Shown here in pieces: positions 1,401-48,571 of a stretch of DNA of 51,030 nt. The notes under the pieces were generated by a model. The model was not told where the DNA came from. It saw only the letters and a program-made list of their open reading frames with translations, and made no database searches. The translations under genes and the position numbers were made by a program. Origin of the DNA: an uncultured Rubrobacteraceae bacterium (GTDB lineage Bacteria; Actinomycetota; Rubrobacteria; Rubrobacterales; Rubrobacteraceae); NCBI GenBank assembly GCA_964250345.1, contig CAXUFZ010000002.1:1-51030 (forward strand). Reading direction: 5' to 3'. The stretch's first letter is position 1, and each line of letters opens with the position of its first letter.

Positions 1401-3030
1401 ACCAGGGCATCGCCTCCAGGACGCGCCCGATCACGCCGGCCACCACGGCCACGAACCCGTCCGACCTTGCGGGGGCCGGACGGTTGTTCTCGGGGGACGC
1501 CGGTAGCCCGTTCTCCTGCAGGAGGACATCCTTCTCCACGTCCGTGAGGTAGCGTCCGCCCTTCTCGGCCGGGGTGTTGTTGTATTGGGAGAGCGTCTCC
1601 AGCCTGTTGGCCCACTTGAAGCGGTACGCCCGGCCCTCGGCGCCGTCGTACCAGTAGGCGCCGCCCGCCCCGGTGTTGGCGGAGGAGGGGGCGTAGATGC
1701 TGGGCGCGCCGGCGGAGATGGCGCCCGGGCTCTCGTTCCAGAAGACCGCCGCGCGGTACCCGGAGCCGGTCGTCTCGTCCACGATCACGCGGTTGTTCCC
1801 CACGACGACCCCCGTGGTCGCGTCGTAGGACCGTTCGTCGGCGTCCCGGCGGTTCTGCTGGACGACGCCGATGCCGGAGGAGTTCCAGGCCAGGACGTTG
1901 CCGTCCACGGCGCCGTTGCGCGAGCCGGCGACGACGATGCCGGCGCCGCTGTAGGAGTCCCCAGCACCCCAGCCGTTCTCCCAGAGCACGTTGTTGGTGA
2001 CGGCGAAGTTCTTCGTGATCTCGACCCGGATGCCCTGGCTCGGGTGGTGGTGGACCCTGTTGTTCGAGACCTCGACGGAGGTCTGGCGGGCGTTGACCAC
2101 GTCGGTCCAGATGCCGATGTCCCCGTTGTGGTGGACCTCGTTGCCGGAGACGTTGGCGGTCTTGGCCTGGGCGATCTTCATGCCGCCGGCCTCCCAGCCG
2201 GGGTCGAAGCCCTCGGTGTTGTTCTCGTAGACGCGGTTGGAGAGGATCTGGACGCGCGCGTCGTTGCTGCCGATGCCGAGCTGCCCGGCGTGGTGGATGT
2301 CGTTGTCCTCGGCCACCAGCGCGTCCCCGAGCGTGAACGCCAGGTTCCTGCCGTGGGCGTACGAGAGGTCGTTGCCCCGCACCGTCCACCCGGAATACCC
2401 GCCGTTCCAGAGCCCGTCGAACCCGGCGTGCCGCATCTCGACGTTCCGCACGGTGACGCCGTTCGACGCCCCGTAGACCCACCGATCCCTGACGGTGACC
2501 TCGACGGTCCGGCCCGTCGGATCCTCGCCGAGCACCACGCGCCGCCCCGCCGCGAGCGCGAACTGGCCCGCCCCCGGGCCGGAGGAGACCTGCGCGAGCT
2601 GCCTCCCGTTCACGAAGACCTGCTCGGGCCGCTCGCAGCGCCGGCTCGCGCCCACGCACCTGTAGCGGTCGGGCGACTCCAGCGCCGGCACGCTCCTCGC
2701 GCTGGTCCAGCCGGCGCCGCCCTTCGTCCACCGCTTCCACACGTCGGAGCCGCGGACGGCGCCACCCCCCGCGCCGTCGAGCGTGAGGGGCTTGCCCACC
2801 TTGACCGTCTCGCGGTACACGCAGCCGTCCGTCAGCTCGACCGTCGAGCCCGGGGCCGCCGCGTTGACCTTCGCCTGCAGGGACTCCTGGCAGGTGGGTG
2901 GAATCTCCGTGGTCTGGGCCGAGGCCGTACCCGCGTTCGGCAAGAGCGCGGCCAACGGCAGGACCAGGCACGCCGCCAGCAGCAGACGCGCGGTCGCGGG
3001 AGATCTCTTGCCACGTCGAATCTTTTTCAT
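1399..3030 (-). CDS. Secreted right-handed parallel beta-helix (pectin-lyase-fold) protein
   Basis: Signal peptide; SLQAKVNAAAPGSTVELTDGCVYRE cap; repeated V.GN.VHHNG..GI Asn-ladder repeats; GGAGGGG RBS. Confidence 0.85.
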   Translation of the reverse strand: MKKIRRGKRSPATARLLLAACLVLPLAALLPNAGTASAQTTEIPPTCQESLQAKVNAAAPGSTVELTDGCVYRETVKVGKPLTLDGAGGGAVRGSDVWKRWTKGGAGWTSARSVPALESPDRYRCVGASRRCERPEQVFVNGRQLAQVSSGPGAGQFALAAGRRVVLGEDPTGRTVEVTVRDRWVYGASNGVTVRNVEMRHAGFDGLWNGGYSGWTVRGNDLSYAHGRNLAFTLGDALVAEDNDIHHAGQLGIGSNDARVQILSNRVYENNTEGFDPGWEAGGMKIAQAKTANVSGNEVHHNGDIGIWTDVVNARQTSVEVSNNRVHHHPSQGIRVEITKNFAVTNNVLWENGWGAGDSYSGAGIVVAGSRNGAVDGNVLAWNSSGIGVVQQNRRDADERSYDATTGVVVGNNRVIVDETTGSGYRAAVFWNESPGAISAGAPSIYAPSSANTGAGGAYWYDGAEGRAYRFKWANRLETLSQYNNTPAEKGGRYLTDVEKDVLLQENGLPASPENNRPAPARSDGFVAVVAGVIGRVLEAMPW

Positions 3031-3058
3031 ATCCCCTCCGGTCTTTCTAGATCTCTGT

Positions 3059-3829
3059 TTACCAGTAGGCGCCGCGGCGGAGCCTCCGGGCGGCGCGCAG
3101 GCCCCTCGCCAGGGCCCGTTTCGAGCGGCGGGTCAGGGGACTTTCGTCGGGGAGGTAGCGGGCGCGGATGCGGTCGTCCTCGACGTTGCTCTCGGCGCGC
3201 ATCTTGCTGTTCTTCTGCTCCGGGTAGCGGCGCATTTGGGACCAGGGGCGGGGGACGTGGTGGATCCCGGCGTGCTCGGCGAAGCGGGCCCAGAGGTCGG
3301 CGTCCATCGCCAGGTCGAAGGCGGGGTCGAGGCCGCCGACCCTCTCGTAGAGGCCGCTCCTCCAGAAGGTCGAGGGCTGGGGCAGGTAGTTGTAGGTGTA
3401 CATAAAGAGGAAGCGGTCGAAGTCGATCTCCTTCTGCCACCGGATGGGCCGGCCCTCGGCGTCGATCCACCTCGCGTCCCCGTAGACGACCTGCCAATCG
3501 GGGTTGTCCACGAACGTCTGGGCCACCTCGAAGAGGGAGCCCGGCTCCAGGAGGTCGTCCGAGCACAGCCAGCCCATGATCCCGCCGGTCGCCAGCCCGA
3601 AGCCCCGCGCCAGCGCCTCCGTCTGCCCCCCGTCGGGCTCGCTCACCCAGTACGCCAGCCGGTCCGAGTAGCGCTCCAGGACCTCCCGGCTCCCGTCCGT
3701 CGAGCCCCCGTCCATGACGATGTACTCCAAATTCGGGTAGCCCTGGTCCAGCACGCTCTTCATCGTCGTCTCCAGGTAACCGGCCTGGTTGAACGACGGC
3801 GTCACCACGGATATCTTCGGGTAGTCCAC
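3059..3829 (-). CDS. Glycosyltransferase family 2
   Basis: PKISVVTPSFNQ..LETTMKSVLDQGY, DGGSTDGS, WLCSDD motifs; start reassigned to GTG 3829 with GGAGGAG RBS. Confidence 0.9.
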   Translation of the reverse strand: MDYPKISVVTPSFNQAGYLETTMKSVLDQGYPNLEYIVMDGGSTDGSREVLERYSDRLAYWVSEPDGGQTEALARGFGLATGGIMGWLCSDDLLEPGSLFEVAQTFVDNPDWQVVYGDARWIDAEGRPIRWQKEIDFDRFLFMYTYNYLPQPSTFWRSGLYERVGGLDPAFDLAMDADLWARFAEHAGIHHVPRPWSQMRRYPEQKNSKMRAESNVEDDRIRARYLPDESPLTRRSKRALARGLRAARRLRRGAYW

Positions 3830-3831
3830 CG

Positions 3832-5394
3832 CTATCTCCTCCCCCAAACCACGCCCCGTCGCGGGCGGTGTACGATCGTGCCGCGCAGCGCCCCGCCCGG
3901 GAAAGCCGGGCGTCCCACGCTCTCTGTCTTCTCCGGCGGCCGATTCTCCTCGAAGCTCGGCGCGACGGACATGATGCCGAGGGCGACGAAGGCAGCCAGG
4001 AACGGGAACTCCATGTACTCCTGCATCAGGGAGTCGGTCAGGTTGAGCAGCAGGTAGAACGTCAGGAACAGGAAGGCCAGCCACCCGAGCGGCCGGCCGC
4101 GGCGGGCCGTTTTGAGGGCGACGAAGATCGCCGCCGTCCAGAAGGCCAGGAAGAGGGTCAGGCCTATCGCGCCGGTGTTGAGCAGCTCTTCGAGGAAGCC
4201 GTTGTGCGCGGAGACGACGGGGAAGCCGACCAGTTGCTCCATGTAGGCGAGGCGGTCCGGGTGCCAGAAGGCCGCGAAGCCCACGCCGGTCAGGGGGCGC
4301 TCCATCTGCGGGATCAGGACCTCCCACAAAGGCACGCGGCCCGTGAGGGAGAGCGAGAGCTCGGCGTCGTCGCGGGTGAGGAAGGGCGCCACGGTGCCCA
4401 GCAGGCCGCCGAGGTACGCGACGCACAGGCCGGCTACCGCCAGGGCCGCCAGCCCGGCCTGGAACACCCTCTCCCGCAGCCGGACGCCGTAGATCAGGTA
4501 GACCAGCCCCAGCGCCAGCAGCGCGAACAGCAGCGGCCCCCGCGTCTTCAGCAAGAGGACGGGGAGCGCCAGAAGCAGGAGGAGCGTCCAGTCGCGTCCC
4601 CTCCACCGCCGCATCCCCGCGAAGGACGCCACGACGAGGGCCATCCCGGCGATGAGGACGGGGCGCGCGACGTAGGTTGTGAACCCGCCGGAGATCTCCA
4701 CCCGCTCGCCGGGGTCCAGGATGTTGAACTGGTCCAGGTGCAGCGGCAGCGGCAACAGGATCACGAGCGCCGAGACGACCCCGGCAACCGTAACGTGCCG
4801 GAGAAACAACCTCCCGCCGTCCCCCCGCCCGCCGTAGAACCCCGCGCCGAGCCCGAAGCTGCCGAGCGTCACGAGCGAGAAGGCCACCAGGTTCCTAACG
4901 GTCAGCGTCGGGTAGACGCTCCAGAACAGCGTGGCGTAGCCCCACAACATGTAGACCCCCCACAAACCCATCAGCCGGCGGTACGCCGGGCCCACACGTC
5001 CCACCGCCGGCACCAAAAACAGCATCCCGACCAGGCCGAAAGCCGCGACCAGCAACTGGTTCTGCAGCGACCCCGACGCCGCCCCTACCCCGACCTCCCT
5101 GGGCGAATAGGCGGCGAGCGGCGCCACCATCGCCACCCACCACAGCAGCAAGAACGCCGACACAGCCCTGTCCACGGTGGTGCCTCGACGCCTCACGACG
5201 GCCACCTCCGCCGCGACGACGCCGGGAGCGCGCGGGGAACGTTCGCTCCTCGTAAGCAGCCAGAGGCCGACGCCGAAGACGAGCGCCACCGCGACGAACG
5301 TCGGGGCCGGCGCGTAGGCCACGCCCGCCCCGCCCAGGCACGCCAGGGCGGCGAGCGCGACGACCGACGCCATCTTCGAGGGCAAAAAACTCAT
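3832..5394 (-). CDS. O-antigen ligase / Wzy-type polysaccharide polymerase family membrane protein
   Basis: About 12 hydrophobic segments; LTGRVPLW, PLTGVG, SAHNGFLEELLNTGAIG motifs; start ATG 5394 uncertain. Confidence 0.85.
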   Translation of the reverse strand: MSFLPSKMASVVALAALACLGGAGVAYAPAPTFVAVALVFGVGLWLLTRSERSPRAPGVVAAEVAVVRRRGTTVDRAVSAFLLLWWVAMVAPLAAYSPREVGVGAASGSLQNQLLVAAFGLVGMLFLVPAVGRVGPAYRRLMGLWGVYMLWGYATLFWSVYPTLTVRNLVAFSLVTLGSFGLGAGFYGGRGDGGRLFLRHVTVAGVVSALVILLPLPLHLDQFNILDPGERVEISGGFTTYVARPVLIAGMALVVASFAGMRRWRGRDWTLLLLLALPVLLLKTRGPLLFALLALGLVYLIYGVRLRERVFQAGLAALAVAGLCVAYLGGLLGTVAPFLTRDDAELSLSLTGRVPLWEVLIPQMERPLTGVGFAAFWHPDRLAYMEQLVGFPVVSAHNGFLEELLNTGAIGLTLFLAFWTAAIFVALKTARRGRPLGWLAFLFLTFYLLLNLTDSLMQEYMEFPFLAAFVALGIMSVAPSFEENRPPEKTESVGRPAFPGGALRGTIVHRPRRGVVWGRR

Positions 5395-5488
5395 CGACGC
5401 GCGTCGACGGAACACGAACTCGGTTCTCCCGCTCTGGTCACGAGGGTCTCCATACAAGGTCAGATGATGGCGCGGGCGCGACCCGCCC

Positions 5489-5510
5489 GCATCCGCCAGA
5501 CGGCACATTA
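5489..5510 (-). promoter_or_regulatory. Conserved EPS-locus palindromic motif, copy 2
   Basis: TAATGTGCCGTCTGGCGGATGC; CATCAT 19 nt downstream (5469-5464). Confidence 0.7.
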
Positions 5511-5516
5511 ATCCGC

Positions 5517-5555
5517 GGGCGGGCCGGAACCCGGTGCCGGGCCTTCGGCCTGCCC
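5517..5555 (-). terminator. GC-rich hairpin after the sulfotransferase operon
   Basis: GGGCGGGCCGGA...TTCGGCCTGCCC imperfect inverted repeat right after the stop at 5557; no clear U-tract. Confidence 0.35.
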
Positions 5556-5556
5556 C

Positions 5557-6348
5557 CTAGCCTCGCCGTCTCCGGGGAACGCCGCCGGTCAGGGCGGCGG
5601 ACCTGTCTTTCGCGGACGTTTCGGAGAGTCTGCCGTGGGCGGCCCGGGCCCGCTCGACGAGAGGACCCAGGTCGAGGGATTCCACCTCCTTCTTGAGCGC
5701 GGCCTTCAGGTTGGCCTTGGAGGCGGAGGGGCGCGCGATCTGCTCCTCGACCAGCACGCTGCCGCGCCTGGCCCTGTGCGACGCCTCGATGCTGGCGAAG
5801 ACCTTCTCCACGTTCTTCTCATCGTGCCCGAAGACGCCGAACGAGGTACCGAACCTCCCGTTGACCCGTTCTATGACCGGGCCGTAGTCCCGCGTCACCT
5901 CCTCGAAGGCGCCGAGCACGAAGTGGTCGCGGTAGCCGGCGACGGCCTCGTAGAAGGAGACGTAGTAGCGGAGTGCGCCCTCCGCCGTGTAGCGCGGGTC
6001 GCGCAGCATCAGGGAGAGGGCGGCGTCCACGGGGTCCCGGAGGAGGACCAGGGCGGGGACGCCGAGCCGGGCGGCGCGCACGATCTGGGCCGGCGCGTGC
6101 ATGTGGTGGGCTATGCGGACCTCGCGCTCCTGGGCCTCCCTGAAGGCGAAGACGGCGAACGTGTTCCCGGACCGGGGAAACCCCTCCACGACGAGGTCCG
6201 TCTTGCGGTCCACGAGCAGGTCCCCGTACCCCTGCCGCGCGCCGTAGACGCCGAAGAAGAGGCGGGGATGCCTGCCCACGTAGACCCGCGCGCGCTCCTT
6301 CGCGGCGCCGATCACGCCCGGTCCGGTTTCCTTTCTACTTGTGGACAT
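5557..6348 (-). CDS. Sulfotransferase-like P-loop protein
   Basis: VEGFPRSGNTF (5'-PSB-like loop) and LLRDPVDAALS (3'-PB-like motif). Confidence 0.7.
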   Translation of the reverse strand: MSTSRKETGPGVIGAAKERARVYVGRHPRLFFGVYGARQGYGDLLVDRKTDLVVEGFPRSGNTFAVFAFREAQEREVRIAHHMHAPAQIVRAARLGVPALVLLRDPVDAALSLMLRDPRYTAEGALRYYVSFYEAVAGYRDHFVLGAFEEVTRDYGPVIERVNGRFGTSFGVFGHDEKNVEKVFASIEASHRARRGSVLVEEQIARPSASKANLKAALKKEVESLDLGPLVERARAAHGRLSETSAKDRSAALTGGVPRRRRG

Positions 6349-29436: not shown

Positions 29437-29571
29437 TCAGACGGCCAGGCGCTTGCGTCCCCGACGGCGGCGCGCGGCGATAACCCTTCGCCCGCCGACG
29501 GAGCTCATACGCTTGCGAAAACCGTGGGTCTTCGCCCTCTTGCGGCGGTTCGGCTGATAGGTGCGCTTCAT
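29437..29571 (-). CDS. rpmH: 50S ribosomal protein L34 (not in the ORF track)
   Basis: Translates [44 protein letters not shown]; GAGGAG RBS. Confidence 0.97.
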
Positions 29572-29814
29572 CAGACTCCTCTGCGGATGCTCGAAAATCT
29601 AGGGACGATCCCACCGAGTATATCCGAACCCCCCCGGACCATCCAGCCGCCCGCGTACCGTCACAAGCCTTGTGAGATCGACCGCCGAACGGGCCAGCGC
29701 GTAGGAAAGTCTTGCAAAACAGCGCTTATCTCAGTCCTCAAATCCGCCACCTTCCCCAGCGTTCGCCCGAGCAACGCTACGGATAGTCCCTCTCCATAGT
29801 CCCTTTTCAGTCAC

Positions 29815-29847
29815 TTATCCACAGCCTGTGGATAAGTTTGTGGATAA
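29815..29847. promoter_or_regulatory. Three perfect DnaA boxes upstream of the dnaA operon
   Basis: TTATCCACA 29815-29823, TGTGGATAA 29827-29835 and 29839-29847. Confidence 0.9.
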
Positions 29848-29931
29848 ACATGTGAATGTGCTGCAAAAGCTCAATTTTAGTCCGGTGGCTATAGCGTTGC
29901 ATCCGGGGGTGCGCTACATTCCGGCTTGGGG

Positions 29932-30720
29932 ATGATGAACGCGCAGCGGACACGAGGCGAGCCGGAACGGGCAGGGATCACAGCCCGCGTCGTCGTCTAC
30001 CCGCAGGGGGGCGAGCCGGAGATCACGGAGGTCTCCGCCGCCGGCGCGCGTTCCGCGGCGACGAAGTTCACGCGCATCGTGATGGAGAAGGTGCGAGAGT
30101 CGGACGGCGGGGCACCCGAGGACGCCGTGCGGGAGGTCGTGGAGAACCTCGTGCACGCCGACTACAGGGGGGTCGTTATCTCGGTGCTCGACGGCGGGGA
30201 CGTCGTGCGCGTCTCGGACAAGGGTCCCGGCATCCAGAACAAGGACCGGGCTCTCGAGTTCGGTTTCAGCGGTGCGGCGCCGGAGGTGTTAGAAGACATC
30301 CGCGGGGTCGGCGCCGGTTTGGGTATCGCCCGTTCGGCGGTCGGGAGGTCGGGGGGGACGCTCGCCGTGGAGGACAACATCGGCGGGGGGACGGTCGCCA
30401 CGATTTCCGTGGGCGGGGAGACGGTCGAGCGCGGGGAGGCGGCGCCGGCCAAGGTCGCGCCGCGCCGGTATCCCGATGGGGTTCCGCGGATGAACATCTC
30501 GGAGCGGCAGCAGAAGGCCCTGATCACGGTTCTCGAGTGCGGTGAGGTCGGCCCGTCTACGGTGGCCGAGCAGTTGGAGATAAGCGTCAGTACGGCGTAC
30601 AGGGACCTGTCGGCGCTCGAGGAGCACGGCCTGGTCCTGGCCGACGATTCCGGGAAGCGTCTCATCTCTCCCATGGGGAAGGACGTCGTCGGGGCCATCG
30701 TCGGCGGCTGGGTAAAGTAG
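29932..30720 (+). CDS. GHKL (HATPase_c)-type ATPase fused to a C-terminal winged HTH, first gene of the dnaA operon
   Basis: REVVENLVHA (N box), VSDKGPGI (G1), GVGAGLGIA (G2), GGTVATI; SERQQKAL..STVAEQLEISVSTAYRDLSALEEHGLV wHTH; no HisKA domain. Confidence 0.85.
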   Translation: MMNAQRTRGEPERAGITARVVVYPQGGEPEITEVSAAGARSAATKFTRIVMEKVRESDGGAPEDAVREVVENLVHADYRGVVISVLDGGDVVRVSDKGPGIQNKDRALEFGFSGAAPEVLEDIRGVGAGLGIARSAVGRSGGTLAVEDNIGGGTVATISVGGETVERGEAAPAKVAPRRYPDGVPRMNISERQQKALITVLECGEVGPSTVAEQLEISVSTAYRDLSALEEHGLVLADDSGKRLISPMGKDVVGAIVGGWVK

Positions 30721-30723
30721 CCG

Positions 30724-32067
30724 GTGGCGGGTCGCGAGGATCAGGTCTGGGCCGAGGTTTTGGATCGCGCCTCCGAACACATTGACGTCTCTTCCTTGCG
30801 CGTCTGGTTCGAGGGCATCCGGCCCGTCGAGTCGCAGAACGGTCGGATGGAGATCTCCGTCCCCAACACCTTCGCCAAGGAGTACATCGAGAGCCGCTTC
30901 AGGCCGCTGCTCGAAGAGGTGCTCCACTCCGTAACGGGTGAGGAGACCTCCCTGGTGGTCAGCGTCGGCAGCCCGAACGGCGGCGGGGGCAACGGCGCGG
31001 CCGTAAACGGGGCTGACTCCGGGCTCAACGCCCGCTCGCCGAGGTCGTTCAAGGCCAAGTACACGTTCGACAGCTTCGTGATCGGGGCCGGCAACAGGTT
31101 CGCCCACGCCGCCACCCTCGCCGTCGCCGAGACGCCCGGCCTCGTCTACAACCCGCTCTTCGTGTACGGAGGCGTGGGGTTGGGGAAAACGCACCTTTTG
31201 CGGGCGGTCGGTCACTACGTAGAGGACCAGGACCCGAGCATGAGGATCCGGTACGTCACCTGCGAGCAGTTCACCAACGACTTCATCAACTCCATGCGCG
31301 ACAACTCGCCCCTGGAGTTCCAGAAGCGCTACCGCGAGAACGACGTGCTCCTGGTGGACGACATCCAGTTCCTGGAGAACAAGGTCGAGACGCAGGAGGC
31401 GTTCTTCCACACCTTCAACGCGCTCTACGAGGAGAACAAGCAGATCGTCATAGCCTCCGACCGGCACCCCAAGTACATCCAGACCCTGGAGAACCGCCTC
31501 GTCAGCCGCTTCGAGTGGGGCCTGGTGACGGACATCCAGCCGCCGGACCTGGAGACCAGGATCGCCATCCTCCGCAAAAAGGCCATCATGGACCGCCTCG
31601 AAGTGGACGACGAGGTCCTCACCTTCATCGCCTCGAAGGTCTCGACCAACATCCGCGAGCTGGAGGGCGCCCTGGTCCGTATCCTGGCCTACGCCTCGCT
31701 CTACGAACGGCGAGTAAGCGTGGCCTTGGCAGAAGAGGTGCTGAAGGACATCCTGCCGGATCAGGCGTACCGCGAGATCCCGATAGAGCTGATCCAGCAC
31801 GAGGTCTGCCGCTACTTCGGCATCGCCAAAGCCGACCTGGTGGGCCAGAGTCGCTCGAAAGGTTTCGCCTACCCGCGCCAGATCGCCATGTACCTCTCGC
31901 GCGAACTGACCGACGAATCTCTACCCAAAATCGGCAAGGCCTTCGGCGGTCGCGACCACTCTACCGTCATGCACGCGACGGCCAAGATCTCCAACCTCAT
32001 AAACAGCGACCGCGACGTGTTCAGCCAGATCCACGAGATCACCACGCACGTCAAGAGCAAGCGCTGA
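30724..32067 (+). CDS. dnaA: Chromosomal replication initiator DnaA
   Basis: [58 protein letters not shown]. Confidence 0.99.
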
Positions 32068-32123
32068 ACCCCTCCCCCCAGGGTAGTTACTTTGTAACTA
32101 ATATATGGCCCTCGGACCCCCAT

Positions 32124-32545
32124 CTATCCACACCCTATCCACAACTTCAGGGTTCGCCTGTGGATAACTCTTCGAAACTATCCACAGGCCATGGGAGTTA
32201 TCCCCAGGTTCTGTGGATAACTCGGCGTTTCTGTGGACAAAATTGCGCATCTGACGAACTCGTAAGAATTCAAGGCGTGTTTGCCTGTGGATAAACCTGT
32301 GGATAAGAGGGGTAAAACCTGTGGATAAGTCTGTGGATAGAATTGTGGATAACTCTGGCCTGTGGATAAGTGCCGAGTTATCCACAATTTGTCCACAGGT
32401 TTTCGTGGGTTATCCACATTTTTGTCCACAGGCAGTGTACGGTGTATTCGGCTTACGTAAAGTGGATTTTTGGGGTTATCCACATATCCACAGGCCTTAT
32501 TATTATTATTAATCTAATAGATATATGTTTTCCTAGTAATAATAA
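32124..32545. other. oriC: Replication origin oriC (dnaA-dnaN intergenic)
   Basis: About 19 DnaA boxes by manual count (10 perfect TTATCCACA/TGTGGATAA), ending in overlapping boxes 32476-32492, GGCC, TTA/TAT trinucleotide repeats and an AT-rich tract. Confidence 0.95.
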
Positions 32546-32563
32546 GGGGAGAAGGGAGGCAAG

Positions 32564-33715
32564 ATGAGGGCCGTTTGTAACACTGATACCTTCGGTCGAA
32601 AGCTCGCTCTGGTCTCGCGGGGGGTCTCTGCGAGATCCACGATTCAACTGCTCGGCGGGATACTTCTGGAGGCGGGGGATGGGGCGCTCAAATTGAGTGC
32701 CACGGACATGGAGATCTCGATCCAGACTCAGGCGCCGGCGGAGATCGAGGGTGAGGGCCGCGTCGTCATACCGGCGCGCATCTTTAACGACATCGTGAGG
32801 TCTTTGCCGGGCGGCCAGTTCACGCTCGACCACGACGCCTCCGAGGGCACGGTCCGGCTCGCCGCCGGCGAGAACGAGTACACCATCAGGGCCTACGCCG
32901 CCGACGACTACCCGCGGCTGCCGGAGTTCGACGCCGAGAGCGCCTTCAGGATGCCCGGAGACTCGCTCGTCGAGACCGTCGAGAAGGTCTCCAAGTCGTA
33001 CTCTCGGGACGAGACCAGGCCGGTGTTGACGGGGATCCTGATCTCCTTCGAGGACACGCGGGTTCGGATGGTGACGACGGACTCGTACAGATTGAGCATC
33101 AAGGAGACCGAGCTGGCGACGACGCCGTTCGAGGGTACGCGGGAGGCGATCATCCCGGCCCGGGCCATGCAGGAGGTCTCCAGGATCTTCTCAGGCTCGG
33201 ACGAGGGCGACGTGGAAGTCTCGCTCTCGGAGAACCAGGCGCTGTTCCGGGTCGGAGATGTCGTCTTCGGCACGCGGCTCATCGACGGCAACTTCCCCGA
33301 GTACCGGAGATTGTTGCCCAGCGGCTTCGAGCGCGAGATCTCCGTCTCCAGGGAAGAGCTGATGGGGACGCTTCGGCGCGTCAACCTCTTCGCCCAGCGC
33401 CAGACGCCGCCCGTGCCGGTGAGCCTGTCGTTTACCGAGGGCTCCGTCGAGGTCATCGTCAAGAACGGCGACGTGGGGGAGGCGCACGAGAAGCTCGCGG
33501 CCAACAGCGAGGACGAGTTCCTGATCTCCTTCAACCCCGGCTACCTCTTGGACGGCGTCTCGGCCATCGACACCGACAAGGTCCGTTTCAGGCTCAACGA
33601 GGCGCTGAAGCCGGGCCTGATCGTGCCCGGAGCCGAGAACGGCGACGACGGGGAAGGCGGCGAGCCGGACTTCCTGTACCTCATCATGCCGATGCGCGAC
33701 CCGTCCCGGGGCTAG
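32564..33715 (+). CDS. dnaN: DNA polymerase III beta sliding clamp
   Basis: LSATDMEISI, DETRPVLTG, TTDSYRL, RLIDGNFPEY, FNPGYLLD, YLIMPMR. Confidence 0.97.
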   Translation: MRAVCNTDTFGRKLALVSRGVSARSTIQLLGGILLEAGDGALKLSATDMEISIQTQAPAEIEGEGRVVIPARIFNDIVRSLPGGQFTLDHDASEGTVRLAAGENEYTIRAYAADDYPRLPEFDAESAFRMPGDSLVETVEKVSKSYSRDETRPVLTGILISFEDTRVRMVTTDSYRLSIKETELATTPFEGTREAIIPARAMQEVSRIFSGSDEGDVEVSLSENQALFRVGDVVFGTRLIDGNFPEYRRLLPSGFEREISVSREELMGTLRRVNLFAQRQTPPVPVSLSFTEGSVEVIVKNGDVGEAHEKLAANSEDEFLISFNPGYLLDGVSAIDTDKVRFRLNEALKPGLIVPGAENGDDGEGGEPDFLYLIMPMRDPSRG

Positions 33716-33910
33716 TTGGAGCCGGACGCCGGCATAACGCTCGGCCAGGCGCTCAAGGCCTCTGATCTCGTGGGGAGCGGGGGGGAGGCTAAGGTCCTGA
33801 TCCAGGCCGGCGAGGTCCTCGTCAACGGCGAGGTCGAGACCCGCCGCGGCCGGAGGCTCAAGAGCGGCGACGTGGTCGATATCGGCGAGGACCGCCTGGA
33901 GGTCGGGTGA
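33716..33910 (+). CDS. yaaA: S4-domain RNA-binding protein (YaaA/YbcJ family)
   Basis: ITLGQALK..LVGSGGEAK..I..GEVLVNGEVETRRGRRL. Confidence 0.9.
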   Translation: MEPDAGITLGQALKASDLVGSGGEAKVLIQAGEVLVNGEVETRRGRRLKSGDVVDIGEDRLEVG

Positions 33911-43281: not shown

Positions 43282-43661
43282 GGTTCGGGCCGTCCGACCC
43301 GCCGCTGCGTCGCGGGGTAACCTCTGGCGGCGTAGAGCAAAGTCCGGACTCGCAGCAGAGGCCGCTCGGGCCAACAACCCGAGGGGCGGGTGGGCGCAAG
43401 CCCCCCGCTACGTCAAGTGCAACAGAGAGCAGACCAGCCGATGGGTCGGAGCTTCGCTTCGATCACAGGTGATGGGTGAAAGGGTGGGGTAAGAGCCCAC
43501 CGGCGGTATCCCGAGAGGGACCGGCCAGGTAAACCACCGGTGCGAGCAAGCCAAAGTGTCCTCCGGGACTGGTAGGCGCAGCTCCGCAAGGAGCCCGGAG
43601 CAACAGCTTCGGAGATGGATGGTGGGATAAAGCAGAATCCGGCTTACGGGACGGCCCGGCC
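43282..43661 (+). ncRNA. rnpB: RNase P RNA (bacterial type A-like)
   Basis: P1 GGTTCGGGCCGTCC / GGACGGCCCGGCC; AAAGTCCGG and AGAATCCGGCTTA (P4); AAGTGCAACAGAGAGCAGACC; GGGTGAAAGGGTGGGGTAAGAGCCCAC; GGTAAACC; TACAAT -10 at 43269-43274. Confidence 0.93.
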
Positions 43662-43755
43662 TTGCAGGTAAAAAGTTTCGCGGTTCAGTCGCTTTCGAAC
43701 AAAGCGACTCGCTTGCCAAGGTCCCTAGGATTACCGCCGATCCGGGGATGCCCCG

Positions 43756-48498: not shown

Positions 48499-48571
48499 AG
48501 CGGACGACGGGCTTCGAACCCGCGACCTCCAGCTTGGGAAGCTGGCGCTCTACCAACTGAGCTACGTCCGC
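48499..48571 (-). tRNA. tRNA-Gly (CCC), CCA not encoded
   Basis: GCGGACG acceptor stem, AGCTCAGTTGGTAGAGC D-arm, CCAGC-TTCCCAA-GCTGG anticodon arm, GGTTCGAAG T-loop; TGCTAGAAT extended -10 upstream. Confidence 0.97.

Follow-up and report, generated by a model that had tools for sequence, protein, structure and literature searches.

What does a predicted ATP-binding protein with a DNA-binding domain do directly ahead of dnaA? The question is raised by contig CAXUFZ010000002.1 of an uncultured Rubrobacteraceae bacterium (assembly GCA_964250345.1), of which positions 1 to 51,030 were analysed; this whole stretch of 51,030 nt is referred to as the window. Between rpmH and dnaA lies an open reading frame (ORF) of 262 amino acids (aa), here given the working name X, that encodes a GHKL domain followed by a winged helix-turn-helix (wHTH). 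An initial annotation had described X as a gene inserted ahead of dnaA and as a candidate regulator of replication initiation. The regulator interpretation is partly supported by the analysis presented here. The term 'inserted' turned out to be misleading, as the X-dnaA arrangement is ancient and conserved and does not reflect a lineage-specific insertion. X is a well-founded, uncharacterised candidate accessory factor of the DnaA/origin system that is built from known domain types, belongs to an unnamed family and has an undescribed genomic role. Full-text literature searches, whose coverage does not extend to subscription-only papers, returned no paper describing gene X, and no mention of it was found in passages of PMC13270200 and PMC4255298. 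The genes that define the locus are as follows (the ratio of non-synonymous to synonymous substitution rates is abbreviated as dN/dS).

29932..30720, plus strand: gene X, GHKL-wHTH protein of 262 aa, stop codon included (ORF, Pfam, homologues, dN/dS)
30724..32067, plus strand: dnaA (Pfam Bac_DnaA E 2.4e-71, DnaA_N, Bac_DnaA_C)
29437..29571, minus strand: rpmH, ribosomal protein L34, divergent from X (Pfam Ribosomal_L34 E 1.3e-20)

The ORF as called spans 29926-30720 on the plus strand and gives 264 aa when read from a TTG. Conservation points to the ATG at 29932 as the start, resulting in 262 aa; relatives start with MM(R/H)AQ and have GGGGATGATG in common. The TAG stop codon of X at 30718-30720 is separated from the GTG start codon of dnaA at 30724 by a spacer of 3 nt (CCG). 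No GGAGG is found upstream of this GTG, only GGGTAAAG within the final codons of X. The placement given in the initial annotation, a 262 aa ORF with three perfect DnaA boxes upstream and a stop 3 nt ahead of the dnaA GTG, is thereby confirmed, as is its remark that dnaA has no obvious Shine-Dalgarno sequence of its own.

Position ahead of dnaA

Synteny was examined in four sets of loci, the records of which are partly shared. The first set comprises the window and its relatives, including five distant families at 29-41% identity; X is followed by dnaA in 20 of 21 loci, with rpmH upstream, and at the exception, L018, the contig ends 6 nt past X. For the second set a collection of named genomes was subjected to a pattern scan that yielded at least 599 stretches, of which 587 were confirmed and 80 loci kept. 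In all 80, X is directly followed by dnaA in the same orientation, and rpmH is located upstream in 70 of them. The third set, a phylum-wide sample, has dnaA directly 3' of X in 38 of 40 loci, the other two contigs ending within ~75 nt past X, and synteny is also retained at all five loci of the fourth set, which harbour unusually long open frames (477-897 codons). A fusion of X and DnaA was considered for these five and rejected, as the extra length stems from an upstream open frame, in-frame read-through past the stop, or a linker insertion. X thus directly precedes dnaA in every testable carrier locus from Rubrobacteria, Coriobacteriia and other groups, and its occurrence is not of the sporadic, non-syntenic kind that would have spoken against the initial proposal.

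The record titles in the second set name Rubrobacter, Rubrobacteraceae, Coriobacteriia, Coriobacteriaceae, Eggerthellaceae and Gaiellales, as well as Candidatus Hakubella, Ca. Geohabitans, Ca. Fervidifonticultor, Ca. Sysuimicrobium and 'Armatimonadetes bacterium CSP1-3'; the labels Desulfuromonadales and Aeromicrobium in the same set are probably binning errors. At one locus, L146 (G328:C1:2216266-2222727), the order is dnaN (minus strand, 1058-2296), X (plus, 2929-4029), dnaA (plus, 4075-5778) and rpmH (plus, 6185-6316), so that the X-dnaA pair is inverted as one unit between its usual neighbours. The distance from the stop of X to the start of dnaA is 2-4 nt in Rubrobacter, L013 and L014 and 9-21 nt in L015, L016, L063 and L069, and in L084 the two genes share a 4-nt ATGA overlap.

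Phyletic distribution and inheritance

X was found in 146 of 401 Actinomycetota genomes from an even draw (E up to 1e-15), most of them with a single match, and the draw contains no X paralogue families at comparable scores. Its distribution is all-or-none by family, with 28/31, 3/3, 4/4, 13/13, 28/28, 7/7, 13/16 and 9/10 genomes in carrier families and 0/26, 0/21, 0/19, 0/21 and 0/22 in others. Exactly one match is present in 70 of 81 sampled genomes of a second phylum, that of the 'CSP1-3' record. Five same-family genomes that scored negative for X, three taken from this draw and two from the relatives of the window's genome, are likewise missing dnaA from their assemblies (E up to 1e-30); the region is therefore unassembled and these misses are not true absences. 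A different picture is seen in five X-negative genomes from five other families (including the unpublished G025), where rpmH and dnaA are directly divergent and ~310-590 bp apart with no X-like frame between them.

Pairwise distances of X correlate with those of DnaA (r 0.83; 2556 pairs from 72 loci). Out of 31 well-supported splits in a FastTree phylogeny of X, 20 recur in the DnaA tree and five conflict locally, an agreement that is inflated by relatedness among the loci. Because of this tree agreement together with the positional data, the simplest reading is that X and dnaA have been vertically co-inherited from before the split of the two phyla, and X would later have been lost in the X-negative families. 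Horizontal acquisition was rejected as an explanation, given that X is similar in GC content (0.64-0.71) to the adjacent genes, is not bordered by mobile genes and has a tree that largely tracks that of DnaA. The initial annotation had also seen no mobile-element hallmarks beside X, and none are present in the flanks.

Domain architecture and conservation

The protein can be divided into three parts, for which pLDDT denotes the predicted local distance difference test score of the structural model.

29968..30417, plus strand: GHKL (Bergerat-fold) domain, residues ~13-162, with an N-terminal beta-hairpin carrying an ARxxxY motif (Pfam, AlphaFold2, fold search)
30418..30486, plus strand: variable low-confidence linker, residues ~163-185 (pLDDT <50 at 163-179)
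30487..30717, plus strand: wHTH, residues ~186-262, with the recognition helix at 219-231, wing residues K242 and R243 and a C-terminal amphipathic helix at 247-261 (Pfam, MarR-like folds)

Residues 63-159 match Pfam HATPase_c (38.2 bits, cut-off 26.4; E 2.1e-9) and residues 187-244 match the TrmB wHTH above its cut-off (E 2.2e-7), with further matches to IclR-type HTH domains. The GHKL domain contains the motifs E68xxxN72, D96xG98xG100 and G125xG127xG129, and Pfam gives no match to a HisKA-type domain in X at E up to 1. Complete Bergerat motifs, the lack of HisKA and a C-terminal wHTH had all been noted initially and are borne out by the Pfam and fold searches. NCBIfam contains no specific model for X and returns only weak generic GHKL and HTH matches such as MutL (E 4.9e-4); no curated family fits the protein.

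An AlphaFold2 model based on a 46-sequence alignment has a mean pLDDT of 87.9. Residues 1-62 are modelled as a beta-hairpin (16-36) and one helix (39-56), which are followed by the N-box helix and the remainder of the Bergerat fold up to ~162, a disordered linker (163-185) and, at 186-262, a winged helix of three helices plus a C-terminal helix. In this model X is made up of a minimal, stand-alone GHKL nucleotide-binding domain and a winged helix to which it is tethered.

Relatives of X are numerous. A word-index search that covered protein lengths of 144-459 aa gave 1265 proteins at E up to 0.001, and the best 120 of these are all full-length, share 70-92% identity with X (E down to 1e-148) and contain the same Pfam pair. 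Their source annotations read 'ATP-binding protein', 'ArsR/TrmB regulator', 'anti-sigma regulatory factor' or 'hypothetical protein', or are lacking altogether. A profile search against 1.84 billion cluster representatives, with no length limit, found 388 clusters (50% identity) at E up to 1e-30, and the best 150 of the matches are 214-491 aa long. The neighbours of X in the ESM Atlas are unnamed HATPase_c+HTH clusters, mostly from Actinomycetota.

Conservation was assessed in an alignment of 46 diverse homologues with 24-56% identity to X, all 46 of which match HATPase_c. Residues P29, N72, H75, A76, G89, D96, G98, G100, G125, G127, G129, N149, G153 and R243 are invariant, and at least 90% of the sequences retain E68, Y23 and K242. 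These positions include the N box, which binds Mg/ATP, both G boxes (G1 and G2) and the basic tip of the wing. Their conservation argues for a working nucleotide site and a functional nucleic acid-binding surface. The amino acid identity of the wHTH within Rubrobacteraceae is 0.92-0.99, and that of the linker within the family is 0.19-0.52, with long insertions in some relatives. Median dN/dS values, calculated from ten loci of the same genus (45 pairs each), are 0.152 for X and 0.066 for DnaA, and X is a real gene under purifying selection.

Several relatives are extended to 340-490 aa with both conserved domains intact. That of L017 (G035:C4) carries a Q/P-rich N-terminal extension of ~230 residues, and L106 (G340:C69) has an N-rich low-complexity insertion between the GHKL domain and the winged helix, such insertions amounting to ~170-200 residues. 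In one genome of the window's genus (L019/L034, G008:C13) X is frameshifted into two overlapping frames, 5001-5426 and 5420-5788, and may be a real pseudogene there or the product of an assembly error.

Relationship to known protein families

The closest structural relative of X is DIP2311 from Corynebacterium diphtheriae (3LMM), which ranks first in Foldseek (E 5.5e-6, 268-278 columns across both domains). Compared by VIA, 3lmm_C aligns with residues 13-162 of X at a Z score of 14.4 over 147 residues with a root mean square deviation (rmsd) of 2.9. The two proteins have the same order of a GHKL domain and a C-terminal wHTH, and an N-terminal beta-hairpin is part of the GHKL domain in both. 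They differ in that DIP2311 possesses an N-terminal domain of ~230 residues that X lacks, the match to X beginning at chain residue 233, and their sequence identity is just 13-16%. DIP2311 belongs to a class that we take to be the COG2865-type proteins with the order AlbA_2 - HATPase_c_4 - wHTH. The AlbA_2 (Schlafen-like) N-terminal domain is missing from X, where just 12 residues precede the GHKL domain, and X has no Pfam match to HATPase_c_4 (PF13749) or AlbA_2 at E up to 1. HATPase_c_4 is also absent among the 25 families listed of the 34 found for the 46 homologues (E up to 0.01). X thus has the architecture of the C-terminal two-thirds of DIP2311-type proteins and is by sequence outside that family. 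The likeness to AlbA_2-type proteins that had been pointed out initially holds for the ATPase-wHTH half, with 3lmm as top match and the nuclease domain missing as stated, but does not extend to membership of the family by sequence. We know of no linkage of DIP2311-type proteins to dnaA, nor of an assigned function for them.

The GHKL domain also resembles the SpoIIAB/RsbW anti-sigma factor serine kinases (1L0O, 1TIL), which like X consist of a minimal GHKL domain of ~140 residues without a DHp or transducer domain. SpoIIAB superposes on the GHKL domain of X at Z scores of 10.8-11.9 over 126-129 residues with 22-23% identity. X differs from these kinases in its fused wHTH, and any kinase activity of X would be putative. 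The anti-sigma type Pfam family HATPase_c_2 has no match in X at E up to 1, and at the locus itself no STAS protein or sigma factor partner is present among the identified neighbours (rsmG, jag, yidC, yidD, rnpA, rpmH, dnaA, dnaN and the S4 gene).

At the sequence level the best matches are the catalytic (CA) domains of histidine kinases (KinB 3D36, HK853, CpxA) and the GHKL domain of NifL (9QQ6), which have N, G1, F-like and G2 boxes ordered as in X. The nearest solved chains in a PDB profile search are KinB (E 3e-7) and HK853 (E 1e-6), with MutL as a weak match (E 3e-5); by structure the CpxA CA domain aligns with X at a Z score of 11.9 and NifL at 10.4, the latter value being from the first model. 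Unlike histidine kinases, X has no HisKA/DHp domain, conserved phospho-acceptor histidine or sensor/transmembrane part, and the locus encodes no response regulator that could be its partner; the sole invariant histidine of the family is H75, which lies within the N box. X was therefore rejected as a two-component histidine kinase, in spite of its HATPase_c domain, because a DHp domain and an acceptor histidine are lacking. An assignment to the GHL ATPases (GyrB, MutL, Hsp90, MORC) was rejected as well. The transducer domain of GHL ATPases supplies a catalytic lysine. X has the ExxxN N box but no transducer (ribosomal S5 fold) domain, and residue 162 is followed by just the linker and the wHTH.

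The wHTH domains of MarR, TrmB and HrcA superpose on the C-terminal domain of X. MarR family chains, some of which were solved with DNA, and HrcA align with the C-terminal 77-86 residues at Z scores of 12-13 and rmsd values of 1.1-2.7, and the wing arginine is conserved in X. Unlike MarR proteins, X has no N-terminal dimerisation helix and carries its wHTH on a disordered linker behind the ATP-binding domain.

Origin neighbourhood and promoter candidates

On the minus strand, the origin neighbourhood of the window comprises rsmG, jag (KhpB), yidC, yidD, rnpA and rpmH as identified by Pfam, and on the plus strand X, dnaA, dnaN behind an oriC-like spacer, and a small gene for an S4-domain protein. 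Downstream of dnaA and in the rpmH-X spacer the following features can be distinguished, the conserved blocks being taken from an alignment of the 360-bp rpmH-X spacer across 15 Rubrobacteraceae.

29617..29647, minus strand: rpmH-proximal conserved block AGTATATCCGAA...CCATCCAGC (15 spacers; its 8-mers in 23-28 of 28 loci)
29712..29719, plus strand: first (C/T)TGCAAAA motif (conserved block; CTGCAAAA in 26 of 28 Rubrobacteraceae spacers)
29815-29823 (plus), 29827-29835 (minus) and 29839-29847 (minus): three perfect TTATCCACA DnaA boxes, an inverted pair 3 nt apart and a third
29861..29867, plus strand: second CTGCAAA motif, shortly after the DnaA boxes (alignment)
29888..29895: palindrome GCTATAGC, conserved as GC..TAGCG (alignment)
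29915..29920, plus strand: -10-like hexamer TACATT (most relatives: TAAATT), 11 nt ahead of the ATG (conserved block GGGGTGCGCTAAATTCC)
32068..32563: dnaA-dnaN spacer with 10 perfect DnaA boxes at 32159-32484 and an AT-rich stretch at ~32497-32530 (TTATTATTATTATTAATC...), GC down to 0.43
32564..33715, plus strand: dnaN, beta clamp (Pfam DNA_pol3_beta, three domains)
33716-33910: gene for a 64-aa S4-domain protein directly after dnaN (Pfam S4_2 E 7e-24)

The window contains 13 perfect DnaA boxes compared with 0.03 expected, a number that was reached in none of 100 shuffles. The boxes and AT-rich stretch of the dnaA-dnaN spacer make it the likely oriC. In Rubrobacteraceae three boxes (up to 1 mismatch) are present upstream of X in all 28 scorable loci, with their arrangement kept in the alignment, and the main cluster of 15-19 boxes (up to 1 mismatch) lies in the dnaA-dnaN spacer. 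The number of boxes upstream of X in other lineages ranges from 0 to 8 at up to 1 mismatch. Coriobacteriia-type loci have most of their boxes in a longer rpmH-X spacer (~800 bp), for example eight in L036, L038, L042, L045 and L087, and 0-3 in the dnaA-dnaN spacer. These patterns suggest that the side of the X-dnaA unit on which the origin proper is situated differs between lineages. As the box clusters occupy one spacer or the other depending on lineage, X always adjoins a DnaA-box cluster. The 8-mers that are widely shared upstream of X in 61 non-Rubrobacter loci are nearly all variants of the DnaA box.

The block AGTATATCCGAA...CCATCCAGC on the minus strand, with its -10-like TATACT, may represent the rpmH promoter. 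The block GGGGTGCGCTAAATTCC, whose hexamer conforms to TAnnnT, would likely provide the -10 element of a short-leader X-dnaA promoter; its TACATT hexamer is not called by a strict sigma-70 scan. The (C/T)TGCAAA motifs and the GCTATAGC palindrome are distinct from DnaA boxes and could be promoter elements or a site for X or another factor. Across the window the CTGCAAA 7-mer is not enriched (four found, 2.2 expected).

A consensus scan finds no promoter- or terminator-like sites inside X, its sole matches being in the dnaA-dnaN spacer. Synonymous-site identity along X among 20 distinct Rubrobacteraceae is flat (0.43-0.65, mean 0.555) and rises at the first codons alone. No conserved element indicative of an internal dnaA promoter is therefore visible within X, a result with which a weak or non-consensus promoter would be compatible in both tests.

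Proposed role and alternative explanations

It is proposed that X is an ATP-dependent DNA-binding factor that is co-produced with DnaA and modulates replication initiation or dnaA expression, a reading to which we give an even chance. Since the spacer is just 3 nt long, no terminator lies between the two genes and no conserved internal element was seen, co-transcription of dnaA with X is the default expectation; both would be transcribed from the promoter downstream of the DnaA boxes and be translationally coupled. If so, DnaA bound at the upstream boxes would control X as well as its own gene. The wHTH of X would bind origin-proximal DNA, probably as a dimer, and the GHKL domain, which is similar to the domains that serve SpoIIAB and NifL as nucleotide switches, would on binding ATP or ADP alter its dimerisation or its contacts with partners. 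This switch would in turn alter the access of DnaA to its boxes or oriC, or the activity of DnaA itself.

Some observations weigh against this proposal. A place ahead of an essential gene near the origin could be retained because it suits expression or gene dosage, with X having no functional connection to DnaA. In L017, L047, L071 and L100 the two genes are 40-86 nt apart, so that tight translational coupling does not apply to every lineage. At short distances X diverges 2-3 times faster than DnaA (0.18 vs 0.05 and 0.30 vs 0.15 in the two closest bins), no X-DnaA fusion exists among the five long-frame loci, and 8-mer counts in the 61 rpmH-X spacers from outside Rubrobacteraceae did not reveal a motif other than the DnaA box that could be the target of the wHTH. 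The split X of G008 may be an assembly error or may mean that the gene is dispensable.

Three other explanations need to be considered. X could be a partner switch or kinase like SpoIIAB whose GHKL domain binds, and perhaps phosphorylates, DnaA in an ATP-dependent manner, with the wHTH serving just as a tether to the DNA and regulation taking place between proteins. The match to the whole SpoIIAB fold, the minimal size of the GHKL domain without DHp or transducer, the conservation of the hairpin residues R19, Y23 and P29 outside the ATP site and the tight stop-start coupling to dnaA, which suggests stoichiometric co-production, all fit this idea. It is nonetheless unlikely, considering that HATPase_c_2 is not matched, that DIP2311 rather than SpoIIAB is the best fold match of the GHKL domain and that fusions with DnaA are missing from the long-frame loci. 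Less probable still is that X acts as an ordinary nucleotide-responsive transcription factor with a regulon unrelated to replication, which keeps its slot ahead of dnaA for the sake of stable, high, origin-proximal expression. A wHTH of the MarR/TrmB/IclR type is typical of transcription regulators, X evolves faster than DnaA, and relatives have been annotated as ArsR or TrmB regulators or ATP-binding proteins. Against this stand the exceptionless position in two phyla and the co-inversion with dnaA, which go far beyond what is usual for unrelated neighbours, and the occurrence of X mostly as a single copy, without paralogue families that score similarly.

The third explanation envisages X as an origin-organising or anchoring factor, an ATP-gated dimerising clamp like those of GHL ATPases or MORC that would serve segregation or membrane attachment by bridging or positioning the DNA of the origin and would have no part in initiation control. 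GHKL ATPases such as GyrB, MutL and MORC commonly dimerise upon ATP binding; the N box REVVENLIHA has weak MutL matches (NCBIfam E 5e-4, PDB E 3e-5), and the C-terminal helix 247-261 reads as amphipathic from its sequence. This helix, however, aligns with the post-wing helix of MarR-type folds and may belong to the wHTH or a dimer interface, and X lacks the transducer (S5-fold) domain that GHL ATPases need for hydrolysis. We consider such a role the most improbable of those discussed here.

Known lineage-specific regulators of DnaA include YabA, SirA, Soj and DnaD in Bacillus, Hda, DiaA and SeqA in E. coli, HobA, and AdpA and MtrA at actinobacterial oriC. X, in the role hypothesised here, would likewise be a lineage-restricted accessory factor at the origin/dnaA locus; it has no sequence or domain relation to any of them, and Pfam and NCBIfam scans give just generic GHKL and HTH matches. 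To our knowledge these regulators include no GHKL protein, nor is any of them encoded by a cistron that is conserved across phyla as the first of a dnaA operon. In its broadest form the proposal would make X the founding member of a new and ancient class of replication initiation factors: an ATP-gated GHKL-winged-helix protein, produced one-to-one with DnaA from a DnaA-box-controlled operon, that times origin firing in Rubrobacteria, Coriobacteriia, other deep Actinomycetota and the CSP1-3-type phylum and was lost toward the model Actinomycetes, hence remaining unnoticed. This wider claim is tentative and falls somewhat short of an even chance.

What is understood of how DnaA is controlled comes mainly from E. 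coli, Bacillus and Caulobacter, whose regulators are not conserved elsewhere. The timing of initiation is an open question for most phyla, and the X family offers a concrete, testable candidate regulator whose carriers include common gut bacteria (Coriobacteriia) and the radiation-resistant Rubrobacter. If the proposal is correct, a GHKL nucleotide switch on a winged helix would constitute a new biochemical type among initiation regulators and would account for the difference between deep and model Actinomycetota at the rpmH-dnaA junction. Should X prove unrelated to replication, X and dnaA would still form an unusually stable gene pair in need of explanation.

Non-coding RNA genes in the window

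Rfam gives no match at the X-dnaA locus. Elsewhere in the window it identifies an RNase P RNA gene (class A, 125 bits) at 43286-43662 and a tRNA gene at 48499-48571.

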